A DNA stretch of 64,000 nt. Source: an uncultured Zetaproteobacteria bacterium (GTDB lineage: Bacteria; Pseudomonadota; Zetaproteobacteria; Mariprofundales; Mariprofundaceae). Positions 3,991-10,091 of this stretch are shown here, one piece after another; the stretch's first letter is position 1; each line of letters begins with the position of its first letter. The stretch covers positions 916 through 64,915 of the forward strand of contig CAZQTO010000001.1 in NCBI GenBank assembly GCA_964596375.1. The letters are read 5' to 3'. A program made the position numbers and the translations under genes. The notes below the pieces were generated by a model. That model saw nothing but the letters and a program-made list of their open reading frames with translations, made no database searches and was not told the DNA's origin.

Positions 3991-5448
3991 TTAGTCCGGC
4001 ATGTACGACCAGCCGGGCTTCATCTTCGACTGGTACATGAAGGTGTAGTGCAGGACGTACTTCATCCAGTGTCCGGCCAGACCGACTTCGCCGGTGGTCA
4101 GTGACAGGTCGCGTCCGTATGCCGGATACTTCACGAAGTCCGGCACCACCGGATAGACGGTCATCGAAACCGCACTGCCGCGGAATAGGTGTGAACCCGT
4201 GGAGGCCATGCAGGCAGCACCCATCTCAGCCATGGAGGCATGGTGGGTCGGCTTCTCGGCGCCATTGACCATGTCGCGGATGCTCTTGGCCACGTTGACG
4301 GCCATAGCGGCGGAAGGCATGCCGGTGCGCGGTGGGGTGGGGCTGATCGGTGTACCGTTGGTGCTCTTCATCGGCTTGCTGATCGGGTGTGGTGGGGCGA
4401 ACGCGATGCCGATGGCAAACAGATTCTTATAGATCGGGTTCTGGTAGGTCTTCGGCCAGTCTTCGGCACTCCACTCCTCGTAGGGGCGCGGCGTGTAGTC
4501 GCCGTCCACCTTCAGGAAGCCGTTCGGGGCGAACAGGGTTGCAGTGATGTCCTCGCCTTTCTTATCGAAGGCATTCAGGCCTACGCCGGCGAATGGCGGG
4601 ATGAGCATCGAGAAGTCGAAATCGAGTTCGCCCATGCTGCCGTCGAGCAGTTCGTAATGAATCTTGCCCGGTTCGATCTTGCTGACATGGGCACGGGTGA
4701 TCCACTCGATGTCGCGCTCCACCATCAGCGATTCGGAGAAGGTCTTGGCGTTGGTCACATAGCCGCCGCGCTTGATATGCACGCCGCCCATACCGAAATC
4801 ACCCAGTTCGTACTCGTTGCTGATCCAGATGATACGTGCTTTGTCGCGTACGCCGGCCTCGCGCAGCGTGTGATCGACGTTATAGGTGTACTCGAATGCT
4901 GCGCCCTGGCAGGTGCACATGCCATGGCCGGTACCGATGACGAAGGTGCGCTCCTCGCCTTTCTTCATGGCCTCGATCTGTTCCTGCAACTTTTCGTTGG
5001 CCTCCAGAGCATGTTTGGCGGTACACACGGAGACCGTGTAGCCATTATCCGGGCCGAGGCCTTCGGTGGCGTTGAAATTCAGCTTAGGCCCCGTGGCGTT
5101 TATCAGGTAGTCGTAAGTGATGGTGTCTTGCTGGCCCGTACGCGCTTCGTCGGTGAACTCGACGGTGACGTAAGGGGATGCGCTGTCCTTGCTTCCCTCC
5201 GGGTGGATAGAGATGCCCTTGGCCTGATGGAAGGTAATGCCAGCCTTGTCGTACACCTGCTTCAGGTCGAAGGTCACTTCCTCCTCGGTCATATCGCCCA
5301 CGCCGACCCAGATGTTCGACGGGATCCAGTTCCACTTGGCGTTGGGGGAAACCACAACGACCTCGTGTTTCTTGCCGATCCACTTGCTCAGGTAGCGGGC
5401 GGCGGTGTGTCCGGCAATACCGGCTCCCAAAATAAGTACGCGTGCCAT
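3991..5448 (-). CDS. sqr: sulfide:quinone oxidoreductase-family FAD flavoprotein
   Basis: N-terminal dinucleotide fold VLILGAGIAGHTAA. Cys contexts GMCTCQGAAFEY and MGAACMAS resemble SQR redox cysteines. 485 aa, long for the family, so the subtype is unresolved. Confidence 0.65.
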   Translation of the reverse strand: MARVLILGAGIAGHTAARYLSKWIGKKHEVVVVSPNAKWNWIPSNIWVGVGDMTEEEVTFDLKQVYDKAGITFHQAKGISIHPEGSKDSASPYVTVEFTDEARTGQQDTITYDYLINATGPKLNFNATEGLGPDNGYTVSVCTAKHALEANEKLQEQIEAMKKGEERTFVIGTGHGMCTCQGAAFEYTYNVDHTLREAGVRDKARIIWISNEYELGDFGMGGVHIKRGGYVTNAKTFSESLMVERDIEWITRAHVSKIEPGKIHYELLDGSMGELDFDFSMLIPPFAGVGLNAFDKKGEDITATLFAPNGFLKVDGDYTPRPYEEWSAEDWPKTYQNPIYKNLFAIGIAFAPPHPISKPMKSTNGTPISPTPPRTGMPSAAMAVNVAKSIRDMVNGAEKPTHHASMAEMGAACMASTGSHLFRGSAVSMTVYPVVPDFVKYPAYGRDLSLTTGEVGLAGHWMKYVLHYTFMYQSKMKPGWSYMPD

Positions 5449-5567
5449 ATTCGTTTCCTCCAGTCTTGTGAGACCGAAAACACGCCGGCCCCTGAGTTGT
5501 TAGCTGCGAACATTATGATATCCTAATATTATAATCAAGCTTTTTTGAAATGAAGCTTGTCTCAGGG

Positions 5568-7196
5568 TCAGGCAGAAAGGATCTTTGCGGCAGCCTTGAG
5601 GCCGTCGACGGCTGCGGAGACGATGCCGCCGGCATAGCCAGCACCTTCACCGACGGGGTACAGGCCTTTGAGCGATACGGACTGCATGCTGTCGTCGCGG
5701 CTGATGCGCACGGGGCTGCTGGTGCGGGTTTCGCTGGCCAGCAGATTGGCTTCATCGGTAAGGTAGCCGCGCATGCGGCGATCGAAGCCTTTAATGCCTT
5801 CGGCCAGTGGTGATGCAATCCAGTGCGGCAACAATTCCCACAGATCGGCAGGAACCACGCTGGGTTTGAAGCGGCAGTTGGCCAGCGTGCCGCTGGCCTT
5901 GCGGTTCACGAAGTCTGTTAAACGCATGGTGGGGGCGGCATATTGGTTTCCGGCCATCTTGTAGGTGGCACGTTCGATCTCGCGCTGGAAATGAACGCCG
6001 GAAAGCGGGTGTGCAGTGATACCGTGGCGTTCAATATCCTCGGGGGTGACCTGTACCACCAGGCCCGAATTGGCGAATTCGCCGGATCGTTTGGCGTTGC
6101 TCATGCCGTTCACGGCCATGCCTCCCTCTTCAGTGGGAGAGGGGACGATCAGCCCACCCGGACACATGCAGAAGGAATAAACGCCGCGTTTGCCCAGATG
6201 ATCGTCGGGCACCTGATGCGTCGCCGCGTATTCGGCGGCACCGAGCGCCGGATGACCGGCCTTGGCCCCGAACTGGATGGCATCAATCAGCGCCTGCGGA
6301 TGCTCGGCACGCACGCCGACGGCGAAGGCTTTGGCTTCCAGATGAATGCCCAGCTTGTGCAGATGTTCGTAGGTGTCGCGTGCCGAATGGCCTGTGGCGA
6401 GAACCACGCAATCGCCATCGATCTCGGTTTCGCTCTCTTCGCTGTCTGCCACCCGCACACCGCACACTTTGTCGTCCTTGGTGAGCAGGGCATTCACGCG
6501 CGCGCCGAAGCGGTAGTCCACACCAAGTGATTCGAGGTGGCCGCGCATATTGCGCACGATGCGCACCAACCTGTCGGTTCCCAGATGCGGGTGGGCATCG
6601 ATCAGGATGTCATGGGCCGCACCGAAGCGTACAAAGGTGTGTAACACATTGCGCACCAGCGGGCTCTTGATGCGCGTGTACAGCTTGCCATCGGTATAGG
6701 TACCTGCACCGCCCTCGCCGAAACAGATATTGCTTTCAGGATTGAGCTCGCCACGCGAACGCAGACGACCGATATCGCGCATTCTCTTTTCCACCGGCTG
6801 GCCGCGCTCCAGCAGCGTAACGCGCAAGCCGCGCTCGGCCAGTTCCAAGGCTGCAAACAGACCGGCAGGGCCTGCACCGACCACAATGGCATGTCTGTCG
6901 TCGGACTGTTTAACGGGTAGGGCAGGGGTATCAAGCGCGGATGCCTTGATAACTCGCAACTGCATAGCCGGATCATTGATCAATTGTTTTGGCAGGGGGC
7001 CAGGCAGGGTAAACTCATAGGAACAGACGAAGTGGATATTGCTCTTCTTGCGCGCATCCAGCGCCTTGCGCACGCGAACACATTTGGCGATGTCAGCCGA
7101 TTGAAGGCCCAGCCGTTTGGCAAGTCTGCTGCAAACGGAATCATCGTCCTCATCGAGTCCGACGTTCAGGTTGGCAATGCAATAGCGAATGGTCAT
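5568..7196 (-). CDS. FAD-dependent dehydrogenase (COG2509-type)
   Basis: VVGAGPAGLFAALELA FAD fold and overall similarity to uncharacterised NAD(FAD)-utilising dehydrogenases. Start taken at MTIRYCIANL; the ORF is open up to 7244. Confidence 0.8.
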   Translation of the reverse strand: MTIRYCIANLNVGLDEDDDSVCSRLAKRLGLQSADIAKCVRVRKALDARKKSNIHFVCSYEFTLPGPLPKQLINDPAMQLRVIKASALDTPALPVKQSDDRHAIVVGAGPAGLFAALELAERGLRVTLLERGQPVEKRMRDIGRLRSRGELNPESNICFGEGGAGTYTDGKLYTRIKSPLVRNVLHTFVRFGAAHDILIDAHPHLGTDRLVRIVRNMRGHLESLGVDYRFGARVNALLTKDDKVCGVRVADSEESETEIDGDCVVLATGHSARDTYEHLHKLGIHLEAKAFAVGVRAEHPQALIDAIQFGAKAGHPALGAAEYAATHQVPDDHLGKRGVYSFCMCPGGLIVPSPTEEGGMAVNGMSNAKRSGEFANSGLVVQVTPEDIERHGITAHPLSGVHFQREIERATYKMAGNQYAAPTMRLTDFVNRKASGTLANCRFKPSVVPADLWELLPHWIASPLAEGIKGFDRRMRGYLTDEANLLASETRTSSPVRISRDDSMQSVSLKGLYPVGEGAGYAGGIVSAAVDGLKAAAKILSA

Positions 7197-7307
7197 TGCG
7201 GCATACTCACCGAGGCACTTCGTGTTGTCATGGCTAAACCTCACGCACGATTGCAGATGGTGCTGTAATACTTCATTCTATGGTCAGTTAGTCGATTAGG
7301 GGGTGGG

Positions 7308-7934
7308 ATGAGAAAAGCTGATATTATCAAGAGGCACGATGAATTTTTTTATACAGTCGAGTGGTATGAGGGTTTTCTTCAGAAAATCATCTCGGCTAGG
7401 AGAGTTTTAGGGGATGCTGAGGTTAAAAGAGAATTGGCCGAATCAATTATCTTGAGACTTTGCGCTCATTGGGAGTACTACATTGACGAACTCTTGATCG
7501 CATGTGTGAATCGAGATCATTCAAAATTGTCAGAGTTTTTTGGTGTAACTATTCCAGAGCACCCCTCACAGGAATTATGCCAAGCACTTATTTTCGGGGA
7601 CGGATATCGCGATTTCCCCTCGTTCGGTGCATTAAAAGGTTTCTCGAAAAAGATTTTGAAAGAAGAAAGTAATCCTTTCCTTAGCATTCAAGGAGAAAAC
7701 TGGAAACTGATTGATGAGGTTTACGCAATTAGAAATTACCTTTCGCACTATAGTCGAAAGGCGCGGCGGTCTTTGTTCCATATGTACAAATCTAATCACC
7801 AAATGAGTCGCTTCTACGAACCGGGTCAATTCTTACTTGCCTATAATGCCAGTCGTTTTGATGATTATTTCAGAGCTTTTGCTGGCGCATCTAACGATAT
7901 GAAGATTTGGCTTGAAACGGGAGGGGGAAGTTAG
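7308..7934 (+). CDS. AT-rich orphan protein with HEPN-like Rx4H motif
   Basis: 208 aa, predicted all-helical by eye. AIRNYLSHY (R142-H147, nt 7731-7748) fits the HEPN Rx4-6H signature. Spot G+C counts of two 60-nt lines gave 35% and 40%. Lies on the opposite strand to both neighbours. Confidence 0.55.
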   Translation: MRKADIIKRHDEFFYTVEWYEGFLQKIISARRVLGDAEVKRELAESIILRLCAHWEYYIDELLIACVNRDHSKLSEFFGVTIPEHPSQELCQALIFGDGYRDFPSFGALKGFSKKILKEESNPFLSIQGENWKLIDEVYAIRNYLSHYSRKARRSLFHMYKSNHQMSRFYEPGQFLLAYNASRFDDYFRAFAGASNDMKIWLETGGGS

Positions 7935-7950
7935 TCTCAAGATTCACTGC

Positions 7951-7979
7951 AACAAGGGCGGCCATTGGCCGCCCTTGTT
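7951..7979. terminator. perfect 13-bp palindromic hairpin between convergent genes (hairpin family copy 1)
   Basis: AACAAGGGCGGCC-ATT-GGCCGCCCTTGTT, flanked by the stops at 7932-7934 (+) and 7981-7983 (-). Confidence 0.75.
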
Positions 7980-7980
7980 G

Positions 7981-8748
7981 TTATAGCTTGGCTGCTGCGA
8001 TGCGGCGCAGGGTCGGCACCTCAAGCCCTGCTTCATCGGCTATGCTCAGCGCGCGATCAAGGCGTGCCGGGGCCGAGCGACCCATGCAGCCGTGTTCGGG
8101 GTCGCCGTCGAAGGCGGCGAGCATGCCTTCGATCAGTGTCGGGCGGTCGAGCTCCTGCCCGGTCAGATGCTCCTGGATATCGAGCACATCGCCGGCCACT
8201 GCGCAGGCCAGGTCGTTGTGCTTAAGCCACAGGTCGCGCACATTGCCGCCGGATTCGAGGCCGGCGATGTTGGTGGTCAGGATGTAGAGATTCTTGAGAA
8301 CAAGCTCAAACAACAGTTCATTGTCATCTGCCAGTTCGCGCACAGGGATATCGAGCGAACCCAATGCATCCTTAAGCAGCGGCGCAAATTCGCCGTAGGC
8401 AGGGGAGGCAATCACCACCTTGGAATCCATGCCCTTTTTCTTCTCGAACCACACGGAGACCACTGTCGGCTTGCTTAAACCATGTTGTCTCCAATCGCGC
8501 GGCAGTAACTCGTTCTGCAGTAGGACCAGGCGGTCACACCATGCATCCGGCAGATCGGCCAGTGTGGCTTGCAGGTCCTTCTCGGCGACGGCCACGATGA
8601 CCATTTCGGGCTCAGGCACTTCATTAGCCACGATGCCCAGATCCATATCGCGTGTGACCGGTACAATCGGATAGCCAAGGCGCATGAATCCGCGCGCAAA
8701 CACCGATCCGATCTCACCGATTCCTATGACTACCACTGGTTTGTGCAT
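7981..8748 (-). CDS. NAD(P)-binding Rossmann-fold protein, ketopantoate-reductase-like (tentative)
   Basis: N-terminal VVVIGIGEIGSVFARGF glycine-rich fold. 255 aa. High G+C like the core genome (one 60-nt line counted at 70%). Confidence 0.45.
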   Translation of the reverse strand: MHKPVVVIGIGEIGSVFARGFMRLGYPIVPVTRDMDLGIVANEVPEPEMVIVAVAEKDLQATLADLPDAWCDRLVLLQNELLPRDWRQHGLSKPTVVSVWFEKKKGMDSKVVIASPAYGEFAPLLKDALGSLDIPVRELADDNELLFELVLKNLYILTTNIAGLESGGNVRDLWLKHNDLACAVAGDVLDIQEHLTGQELDRPTLIEGMLAAFDGDPEHGCMGRSAPARLDRALSIADEAGLEVPTLRRIAAAKL

Positions 8749-8779
8749 ATCTGTCTCCTATGATCGCGCGAATGCTAAC

Positions 8780-8808
8780 GAAAAGAGCGGCTAATGGCCG
8801 CCCTTTTC
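8780..8808. repeat. palindromic hairpin, family copy 2, located in a divergent 5' region
   Basis: GAAAAGAGCGGC-TAATG-GCCGCCCTTTTC (one mismatch). Same GGCGGC...GCCGCCC core as copies 1 and 3. Confidence 0.7.
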
Positions 8809-8913
8809 ATTACAGGGCGTTTAGGACTAGATTCCATTTTGTTCTAGGGGAGCACTGCATTTAGCAAGCTGTCACCGTAATTCGATTCCGGATTGGTGAT
8901 GATGGGAGTTTAT

Positions 8914-9981
8914 ATGGTTAAGTTTGGCATAGGTTGTTTTGTCTTCGGTTTCAAAACACCCGTTGAGACTTCCTTAGCAGAATATAAGGACAAGCTTAAG
9001 GAGGCCTTGGAAAGAATCTCAAACATTAGTGCTGTTGATATTACAATTTCCAGTGATTATCCGATTGTTTGGGATGAGCGGGTTGAGCCGATAAACGACT
9101 CTGGAATCGGGATGAACCTTTCTGATATCAATATTACTTTCAGCTTGCATATTCCATTTAGGGTTCAAAAGGAATTATTCGATAGGCCGCTTAATTGTGG
9201 TGTGGAAGACTTTGTTGTTGAAATTGAGTATGGATTCCATGGCCCATTTACAACAATTGTTCCCGTCGGATGTGGGGCAGATAGTAAACCATCCGATGCT
9301 GTTATTTGTGTCAGGGAGTTTCTGCGAAAGAATTTTTCTGATGACCTTCTTAGGTTTGAGAACCTAGGTCCATCCCCATTTCACGCAAACTTTGTGCTTT
9401 CCCCTGGAAATGATGATGCACAAGAAAATTTAGTGGCAGATGTAAGAAAAAAGAAAGGGTATGATGAAATACGATTTCTATATCCACCATCGGGAAACAG
9501 TGAAGATGCCTTTTCTGAAGTATTGTATGAACTTTCTAGTGAGTTGAGCCTATTCTACAACCAAGAGGCTCATAGATCTTATTCTTATCAACAATGGGAT
9601 GAGTTGCAGAAAAGAATCGACAGTTACTTATCTATTCCTCCCAAGGGGTTCGTAATGGAGTCAATTAGGAATCTAAAGGACCGTCACACCATTGATGCCT
9701 TAATAGTTGACCTCGCAAAGTTTAAATTTGAAACAATCCAATATTCATCTTACATCCAGATGACAATGGGCAATATATATGACGGTGGTGCGTATAAAGG
9801 GTATCTGAAATTATACAATGAAGGAATACGGCCAATCATGGAATATCATCCTGATGACGTAGTTGCGACTCTTAAGTTTATATCTGAACGAAGAAACAAA
9901 AGCTATGAAATTCTTATCGGACTGCTTTCAGGTCTGTGCGGAGGAATAATAGGGTCACTCCTGATGATTTTATCTAGCTAG
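8914..9981 (+). CDS. AT-rich orphan protein with a single C-terminal transmembrane helix
   Basis: Start chosen at ATG 8914 (GGGAG 6 nt upstream); the ORF is open from 8893. 355 aa, no recognisable domain. C-terminus ILIGLLSGLCGGIIGSLLMILSS. Spot G+C of 60-nt lines ranged 27-52%. Confidence 0.55.
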   Translation: MVKFGIGCFVFGFKTPVETSLAEYKDKLKEALERISNISAVDITISSDYPIVWDERVEPINDSGIGMNLSDINITFSLHIPFRVQKELFDRPLNCGVEDFVVEIEYGFHGPFTTIVPVGCGADSKPSDAVICVREFLRKNFSDDLLRFENLGPSPFHANFVLSPGNDDAQENLVADVRKKKGYDEIRFLYPPSGNSEDAFSEVLYELSSELSLFYNQEAHRSYSYQQWDELQKRIDSYLSIPPKGFVMESIRNLKDRHTIDALIVDLAKFKFETIQYSSYIQMTMGNIYDGGAYKGYLKLYNEGIRPIMEYHPDDVVATLKFISERRNKSYEILIGLLSGLCGGIIGSLLMILSS

Positions 9982-10047
9982 CTTTCTACCATTTCATAGC
10001 ATCTCGAATAGCCAGATTGCGGTGAAAGGGTACTAAATGATCAAACA

Positions 10048-10076
10048 ACAAAGGGCGGCCATCAGCCGCCCTTTTG
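10048..10076. terminator. palindromic hairpin, family copy 3, between convergent genes (ettA terminator)
   Basis: CAAAGGGCGGC-CATCA-GCCGCCCTTTTG, between the stop at 9979-9981 (+) and the ettA stop at 10092-10094 (-). Confidence 0.75.
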
Positions 10077-10091
10077 GTCGATGCTTGGCGC

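Follow-up and report, generated by a model that had tools for sequence, protein, structure and literature searches.

The window, by which we mean the whole 64,000-nt stretch of DNA analysed here, carries at positions 7308-7934 of the plus strand an intact ORF of 208 aa that starts with ATG and encodes a HEPN-type protein. The ORF lies antisense to both of its neighbours (5568-7196, or to 7244 with the longer start, and 7981-8748), which are both on the minus strand. The features to which the argument refers are given below in window coordinates, followed by one feature from a related genome.

5568-7196, minus strand: left flanking core gene, coding for an FAD-dependent protein (PF21688); listed from a GTG at 7244
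7219-7307, plus strand: upstream non-coding part of the insert, carrying an AGGGGG run
7223-7235, plus strand: imperfect direct repeat of 13 nt (TGTTGTYATRGCT), left copy, lying 4 nt within the insert from its left border
7308-7934, plus strand: stand-alone HEPN-superfamily protein of the RiboL-PSP-like branch, 208 aa, a predicted metal-independent RNase (Pfam, alignments, AlphaFold model and hhalign)
7440-7442, plus strand: codon of E45, an acidic residue of the second long helix (37-69) that is nearly invariant, with conserved W55 and E56 downstream
7671-7679, plus strand: NPF motif (N122-P123-F124), conserved and specific to this family, within the insert that separates core helices 2 and 3
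7731-7748, plus strand: R142-N143-Y-L-S-H147, the predicted Rx4H catalytic motif (RNx3H), at the C-terminal end of helix 129-147
7950-7980, no strand assigned: GC-rich hairpin, a perfect palindrome of 15+15 nt, lying between the stop codons of the convergent HEPN and 255-aa genes
7976-7988, plus strand: right copy of the 13-nt repeat (TGTTGTYATRGCT), overlapping both the end of the hairpin and the 255-aa gene's stop codon
7981-8748, minus strand: right flanking core gene, whose 255-aa product resembles Rossmann-type oxidoreductases and is 85-87% identical in congeners
4516-5737 of locus L010 (congener G003), in the same slot as the HEPN gene: TrmO-like gene (PF01980, E 1.5e-42) and ParE toxin gene (PF05016, E 9.3e-18) with an overlapping 88-aa ORF upstream

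At 0.408, the G+C content of the HEPN ORF lies below the mean of the window, 0.541 (z = -3.46). Values as low as this occur in only 1.2% of 627-nt windows, all of them inside the HEPN ORF or a second AT-rich ORF at 8893-9981, and these two ORFs are the sole stretches of the 64 kb with a G+C content below 0.45. The GC3 value of the HEPN ORF is 0.41, compared with 0.69 for both the 255-aa gene and the FAD gene and 0.71 for the ABC-F gene. A Shine-Dalgarno-like AGGGGG run (around 7297-7302) is positioned 6 nt upstream of the ORF, and the ATG start is supported by homologues, in which the M-R-K N-terminus is near-invariant. A promoter scan of 7219-7307 gave no convincing sigma-70 promoter. The identical protein was found on three contigs in a search of a 90%-clustered database. 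The original prediction had described an AT-rich 208-aa ORF at 7308-7934, opposite in strand to both neighbours and with R142-N-Y-L-S-H147 encoded at nt 7731-7748; each of these statements is borne out by the present figures (G+C 40.8%, GC3 0.41 against 0.69-0.71).

Comparison with two congeners (G001 and G003) places the borders of the insert at about 7219-7980, giving a length of around 762 bp and a content of one gene. The homology to these congeners ends at about 7218, some 22 nt beyond the ATG (7196) of the FAD gene. Outside the HEPN ORF the insert comprises just 89 nt upstream and 46 nt downstream, and no integrase or transposase is encoded in it. The junction between the FAD gene and the 255-aa gene is found only in the source's genus, where three genomes have it in common. 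In G001 the two flanking genes are 23 nt apart, which represents the empty site, and in G003 they are separated by a 1.3-kb gap holding the TrmO-like gene and the ParE toxin gene on the opposite strand. The 88-aa ORF overlapping the ParE gene has no Pfam match and is probably the antitoxin. The HEPN protein was not found in 40 relatives, four of the same genus included, and a family profile run over 401 genomes of the phylum recovered the source genome alone, plus one weak distant match. We conclude that the HEPN cassette is of foreign origin and was acquired horizontally.

The insertion also has a bearing on the flanking FAD gene. Its true start is probably the ATG at 7196 rather than the GTG at 7244, as orthologues begin at the equivalent ATG. 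The insert has separated this gene from the 255-aa gene upstream of it, so that the FAD gene now needs its own promoter in or next to the insert.

Both borders of the insert are marked by the 13-nt repeat. Exact matches to its degenerate pattern in the 64 kb are confined to the two border copies, and by a rough estimate the chance of finding the repeat at both borders is below about 1%, its meaning being unproven. The hairpin at 7950-7980 is probably a bidirectional terminator. Hairpins of this type (AGGGCGGCC-N4-GCCGCCCTT) are present as three copies in the 2.2-Mb genome, at 7954-7976, 8783-8805 and 10051-10073, around the two AT-rich ORFs, and as 0-4 copies in relatives. The middle copy, which precedes the 255-aa gene, also occurs in G003 and G011 and hence is ancestral. 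Given so few copies and an ancestral middle one, the hairpin does not belong to a REP family and its interpretation as a genome-wide REP element was rejected. The two outer copies are near-identical to each other.

A second AT-rich insert (8749-10091; G+C 0.37-0.42, GC3 0.37), in a slot 0.8 kb away from that of the HEPN gene, lies between the 255-aa and ABC-F genes, bracketed by two of the hairpin copies, and is absent from G001 and G003. Its ORF, at 8893-9981 on the plus strand, encodes 362 aa with a hydrophobic C-terminus. Searches of Pfam, PADLOC and PHROG with this ORF gave no match, and just 27 distant homologues were found.

The slot as a whole resembles the minimal mobile elements in lying between conserved genes, in having contents that differ among congeners and in lacking an integrase or transposase. 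It differs from them in that their model includes neither the hairpin nor the 13-nt repeat at the borders, and the junction is known from three genomes only.

The best Pfam match of the protein is PF18735 (HEPN_RiboL-PSP), with an E value of 1.1e-5 and a score of 25.9 bits, below the gathering cut-off of 28.4 bits; a precomputed table assigns PF18735.7 to the protein and to a few relatives. A weak match to PF18739 (HEPN_Apea, E 0.0029) covers the motif region. No family was found for it in NCBIfam or PHROGs, and PDB chains, searched by sequence with both the protein and its family profile, yielded nothing useful. It nevertheless belongs to a real family, with 314 matches, mostly of 202-205 aa and 54-78% identical, in the 90%-clustered database and 269 representatives at E ≤ 0.001 in a 50%-clustered library. 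In an alignment of 67 diverse members, with identities down to 23%, F124, R142 and H147 are invariant, and at least 90% of the sequences share each of E45, W55, N122, P123, N143, S149, P172 and L176. PF18735 is matched by 21 of these 67 members, Apea-HEPN by six and Swt1-HEPN by two. The motif reads R142-N143-x3-H147, that is, an Rx4-6H with a polar residue directly after the arginine, and aligns to the R-N/G-x3-H block of PF18735 proteins. The ORF of the window is full-length, collinear with all homologues and retains every invariant residue.

According to the published description (PMC3710099), HEPN domains are built on an up-down core of four helices, interrupted by an insert between the second and the third. 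Helix 2 contributes an acidic residue, the Rx4-6H motif closes helix 3, and a kink is frequent in helix 4. An AlphaFold2 model calculated on the family alignment is confident (pLDDT 96, pTM 0.91) and all-helical, with helices at residues 6-29, 37-69, 129-147, 150-164 and 172-203 and small ones within 70-128. At the level of secondary structure only, the helix order agrees with HEPN: E45 falls in the second helix, residues 70-128 form an insert of about 60 residues, RNYLSH closes helix 129-147 and the last helix is kinked or broken. Foldseek gave no significant match in the PDB (best E 0.42); HepT toxins (5yep, 6m6w, 7bxo and 8yuf) were returned with probabilities of 0.18-0.38 and TM scores, by target, of 0.36-0.50. 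The second match in BFVD, also non-significant, was a phage MAE_28990-like HEPN protein (E 0.13, probability 0.85).

Ribo L-PSP-HEPN proteins have been described as fused to endoRNase L-PSP or encoded in an operon with ParB (PMC3710099). For comparison we used 30 loci with bona fide PF18735 genes, drawn from 31 of the 401 genomes of the phylum. In 18 of the 30 a gene of 355-373 aa stands immediately upstream, which is a GmrSD_N/DUF262 gene matching PADLOC NsnA and PD-T4-2_A, and a partner-less branch makes up a further 11. Across these loci (L041-L070) PF18735 itself splits cleanly in two, into a DUF262/GmrSD_N-linked (PD-T4-2/NsnA-like) and a partner-less branch. The upstream DUF262 genes fit both the published operon with ParB and PD-T4-2.

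Profile alignment with hhalign matched the present family to the partner-less branch with 91.9% probability (E 6.9e-7) over 183 columns, with the E..WE and R-N/G-x3-H blocks in register. The corresponding probabilities were 32% for the DUF262-linked branch and 88% for a mixed set, and the two bona fide branches matched each other at 84% over only 26 columns. GmrSD_N/DUF262 (PF03235) was not found in the source genome, which is 95.8% complete. Given the profile similarity to the partner-less branch, and with no GmrSD_N gene found in the genome, the HEPN protein is a diverged relative of the Ribo L-PSP-HEPN family that stands without a partner. With that family it shares the best Pfam match, the collinear helix-2 E..WE and R-N/G-x3-H blocks and a length of around 200 aa. 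In contrast, its score is below the cut-off, the protein has no L-PSP fusion and no ParB/DUF262 neighbour is present at its 21 homologue loci, and the NPF and PGQFLL motifs are peculiar to it. By the Pfam cut-off and by the typical operon it falls outside PF18735 proper.

Homologues with 54-61% identity come from at least six named lineages, going by the labels of their MAGs (Eisenbacteria, Bryobacterales, Spirochaetales, Pirellulales, Deltaproteobacteria and Enterobacteriaceae), and identities reach 78% in metagenome contigs. In every locus with usable flanks, the G+C content of the homologue gene is below that of its flanks. The neighbourhoods were compared across 21 loci. No neighbouring ORF of at least 35 aa within 3 kb was common to them, no flanking DNA was conserved at the homologue loci, no Rfam family was found at threshold and the antisense ORFs within the HEPN gene are conserved only as a mirror of the coding frame. 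With no conserved partner ORF, DNA or RNA, a conserved two-gene system was therefore rejected. An MNT gene is absent both from the window locus and from the called neighbours of all homologue loci.

The neighbours that do occur are informative all the same, the homologues often lying in islands of defence, toxin-antitoxin or mobile genes. One locus holds a Type ISP restriction enzyme, PLD-SNF2, Mrr_N and Fic, and another SIR2 with HATPase and IS elements. One homologue lies in an integrase island with a Cap2-like E1 and a JAB protein, and a further one has an Abi_C protein gene 19 nt upstream. Separate loci have DUF4917 and DUF4258, MqsRA, or HipA, and one homologue is found among metabolic genes. 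At locus L029 a low-GC islet (6000-8560) carries a Ymh-family (PF09509) HEPN gene alongside the homologue. This islet follows an Epimerase_2 gene that ends at profile position 227 of 347, within a polysaccharide gene cluster, and it may have truncated that gene. Searches by tblastn did not find the family in 50,697 phage records and gave one weak Streptomyces match among plasmids, and a scan of metagenome contigs returned one short fragment. Three loci of one Eiseniibacteriota MAG (L023, L024 and L025) each match residues 19-73 only, with 51% identity, and may reflect either a gene fragment present in several copies or the reuse of one domain in a different protein.

The broader claims of the original prediction are supported, and neither of the outcomes that it had named as counting against it was observed. 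A HEPN-like identity, deduced there from an Rx4-6H motif in a helical protein, gains support from the PF18735 match (E 1.1e-5), the hhalign result (91.9%) and the position of the Rx4H at the end of core helix 3. The search of the Pfam HEPN clan that was suggested with it returned PF18735 below its cut-off, along with PF18739 (E 0.0029). The gene indeed stands alone, with no MNT-type or other known partner adjacent and no conserved neighbour in the 21 loci. As for its distribution, it is not conserved at this position, as it was not found in the 40 relatives or, save for the weak distant match, in the 400 other genomes of the phylum, and one congener has an empty site. The suggested search for known defence systems with PADLOC 2.0 yielded a weak Cas13-ApeA match (E 8e-4 and 0.017, around 40 residues about the motif) and beyond this no system model was matched.

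Several known HEPN defence systems invite comparison. HepS, the HEPN Solo defence element of the Salmonella prophage Gifsy-1, senses and acts alone and is non-toxic until triggered (PMC13043305). HepS and the present protein are both single small HEPN proteins (<250 aa) with an Rx4H motif and no co-occurring partner or inhibitor. In contrast, no sequence relationship between them was detected with the family profile against PDB chains, no HepS-like entry is present among the top 50 Foldseek matches listed, the hepS candidates translated from the LT2 Gifsy-1 record proved not to be HEPN proteins, and HepS is prophage-borne whereas the present family is missing from the phage records searched. 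PD-T4-2 (Vassallo et al. 2022) consists of a DUF262 protein and a HEPN protein listed under PF18735 (PMC10952713) and has been validated in E. coli as a system acting against phages (PMC9519451). Its HEPN component is thus listed under the same Pfam family that best matches our protein; however, it is a two-gene system dependent on a DUF262 partner that is missing here, and the PADLOC PD-T4-2 model does not match the present protein.

ApeA and the lactococcal Abi HEPN proteins (AbiD/AbiF, AbiJ, AbiU2 and AbiV) are single-gene HEPN abortive-infection proteins, and the weak HEPN_Apea and Cas13-ApeA matches both fall over the motif region of the present protein. ApeA has a beta-rich N-terminal domain of around 300 aa (PMC3710099), and AbiJ and others carry N-terminal sensor domains, whereas the present protein consists of a HEPN domain with an internal insert only. 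HepT/MntA (HEPN-MNT) differs in having an adjacent minimal nucleotidyltransferase antitoxin, missing at the present locus. The protein is best assigned to an already known class, the solo HEPN proteins of abortive-infection type, within the Ribo L-PSP-like clade.

Our data show that the gene is foreign, intact and strongly conserved and that it encodes a HEPN-type protein with an invariant RNx3H motif and no conserved partner. By analogy with HepS, the explanation that we favour, with somewhat better than even confidence, is that it would be a self-contained, auto-inhibited solo HEPN RNase acting in abortive infection. In such a model two subunits would pair, as a dimer or within a tetramer, so that their two Rx4H motifs form one composite metal-independent RNase site, which is a general principle of HEPN proteins (PMC3710099; PMC13043305). 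As no antitoxin is conserved, the protein would be auto-inhibited at rest, its conformation or oligomeric state keeping it inactive in the way shown for HepS. A phage-derived cue may then switch it on, as for HepS and ApeA, and the active enzyme would cut tRNA, mRNA or rRNA, stopping translation and aborting the infection. Candidate surfaces for sensing or regulation are the insert of around 60 residues between core helices 2 and 3, which contains the NPF motif, and the conserved segment PGQFLL. The precedent of HepS and the recurrent defence neighbours speak for this explanation; the Pfam score below the cut-off, the non-significant Foldseek matches, the single weak PADLOC match, the failure to find the family in phage records and its one weak plasmid match, the homologue among ordinary metabolic genes and the want of a recognised promoter speak against it.

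The protein could instead be an HEPN RNase or RNA-binding protein with a role outside defence, in stress dormancy or RNA turnover or as a selfish addiction gene. Dormancy roles have been proposed for cassette-borne HEPN proteins of integrons (Anantharaman et al., PMC3710099), the homologue among metabolic genes has no visible defence neighbours, and the family was not found in the phage collection and only once, weakly, in plasmids. We regard such a role as rather unlikely, since the distribution is extremely patchy (the source genome only among 401 of the phylum) yet 54-61% identity is kept across lineages labelled as different phyla, and defence, toxin-antitoxin and mobile neighbours recur, a pattern typical of conflict genes and not of housekeeping RNA metabolism. 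That the protein is the toxin of a cryptic toxin-antitoxin pair, with a small peptide, a cis-antisense RNA or another RNA in or next to the gene as antitoxin, we judge to be decidedly unlikely. The insert leaves only 89 nt upstream and 46 nt downstream for an antitoxin, the 21 loci have in common neither a flanking ORF of at least 35 aa nor flanking DNA, Rfam has no family at threshold and the internal antisense ORFs are simply mirror images of the coding frame. Nevertheless HEPN toxins commonly need antitoxins, as in HepT/MntA and RnlA/RnlB, a classical ParE pair occupies the same slot in G003, and read-through of the hairpin from the 255-aa gene would be antisense to the HEPN mRNA.

Very improbable, in our estimation, is a silent or decaying passenger, that is, a remnant without expression or a helical protein devoid of catalytic activity. 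The absence of a recognised promoter and the antisense insertion into a gene row that is tight in the congener speak for such a passenger; the full-length ORF collinear with its homologues, the retention of all invariant residues, the good ribosome-binding site and the occurrence of the same protein on three contigs all speak against it. A more ambitious form of the solo HEPN RNase explanation may be put forward as speculation, to which we give a low probability. Here the family would constitute a distinct, cross-phylum group of self-contained (sensor plus effector) immunity proteins of the solo HEPN type, with no sequence relationship to HepS. The group would spread as a bare single-gene cassette that enters intergenic slots by hairpin- or short-repeat-guided insertion without a recombinase of its own, and the 13-nt repeat and the hairpin would be the footprints of this process.

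With three cleanly distinguished states (empty, ParE pair and HEPN), the locus exemplifies a small slot in the chromosome where conflict genes accumulate. It was only recently (2026) that HepS showed solo HEPN proteins both to sense infection and to kill the cell. The present protein is compact (family members being around 205 aa), very well conserved, confidently modelled and partner-less, and hence offers a convenient second test case for how such a protein remains harmless without an antitoxin. Furthermore, the family is missing from current defence-finder models and only grazes the Pfam cut-off, so genes of this kind are undercounted.
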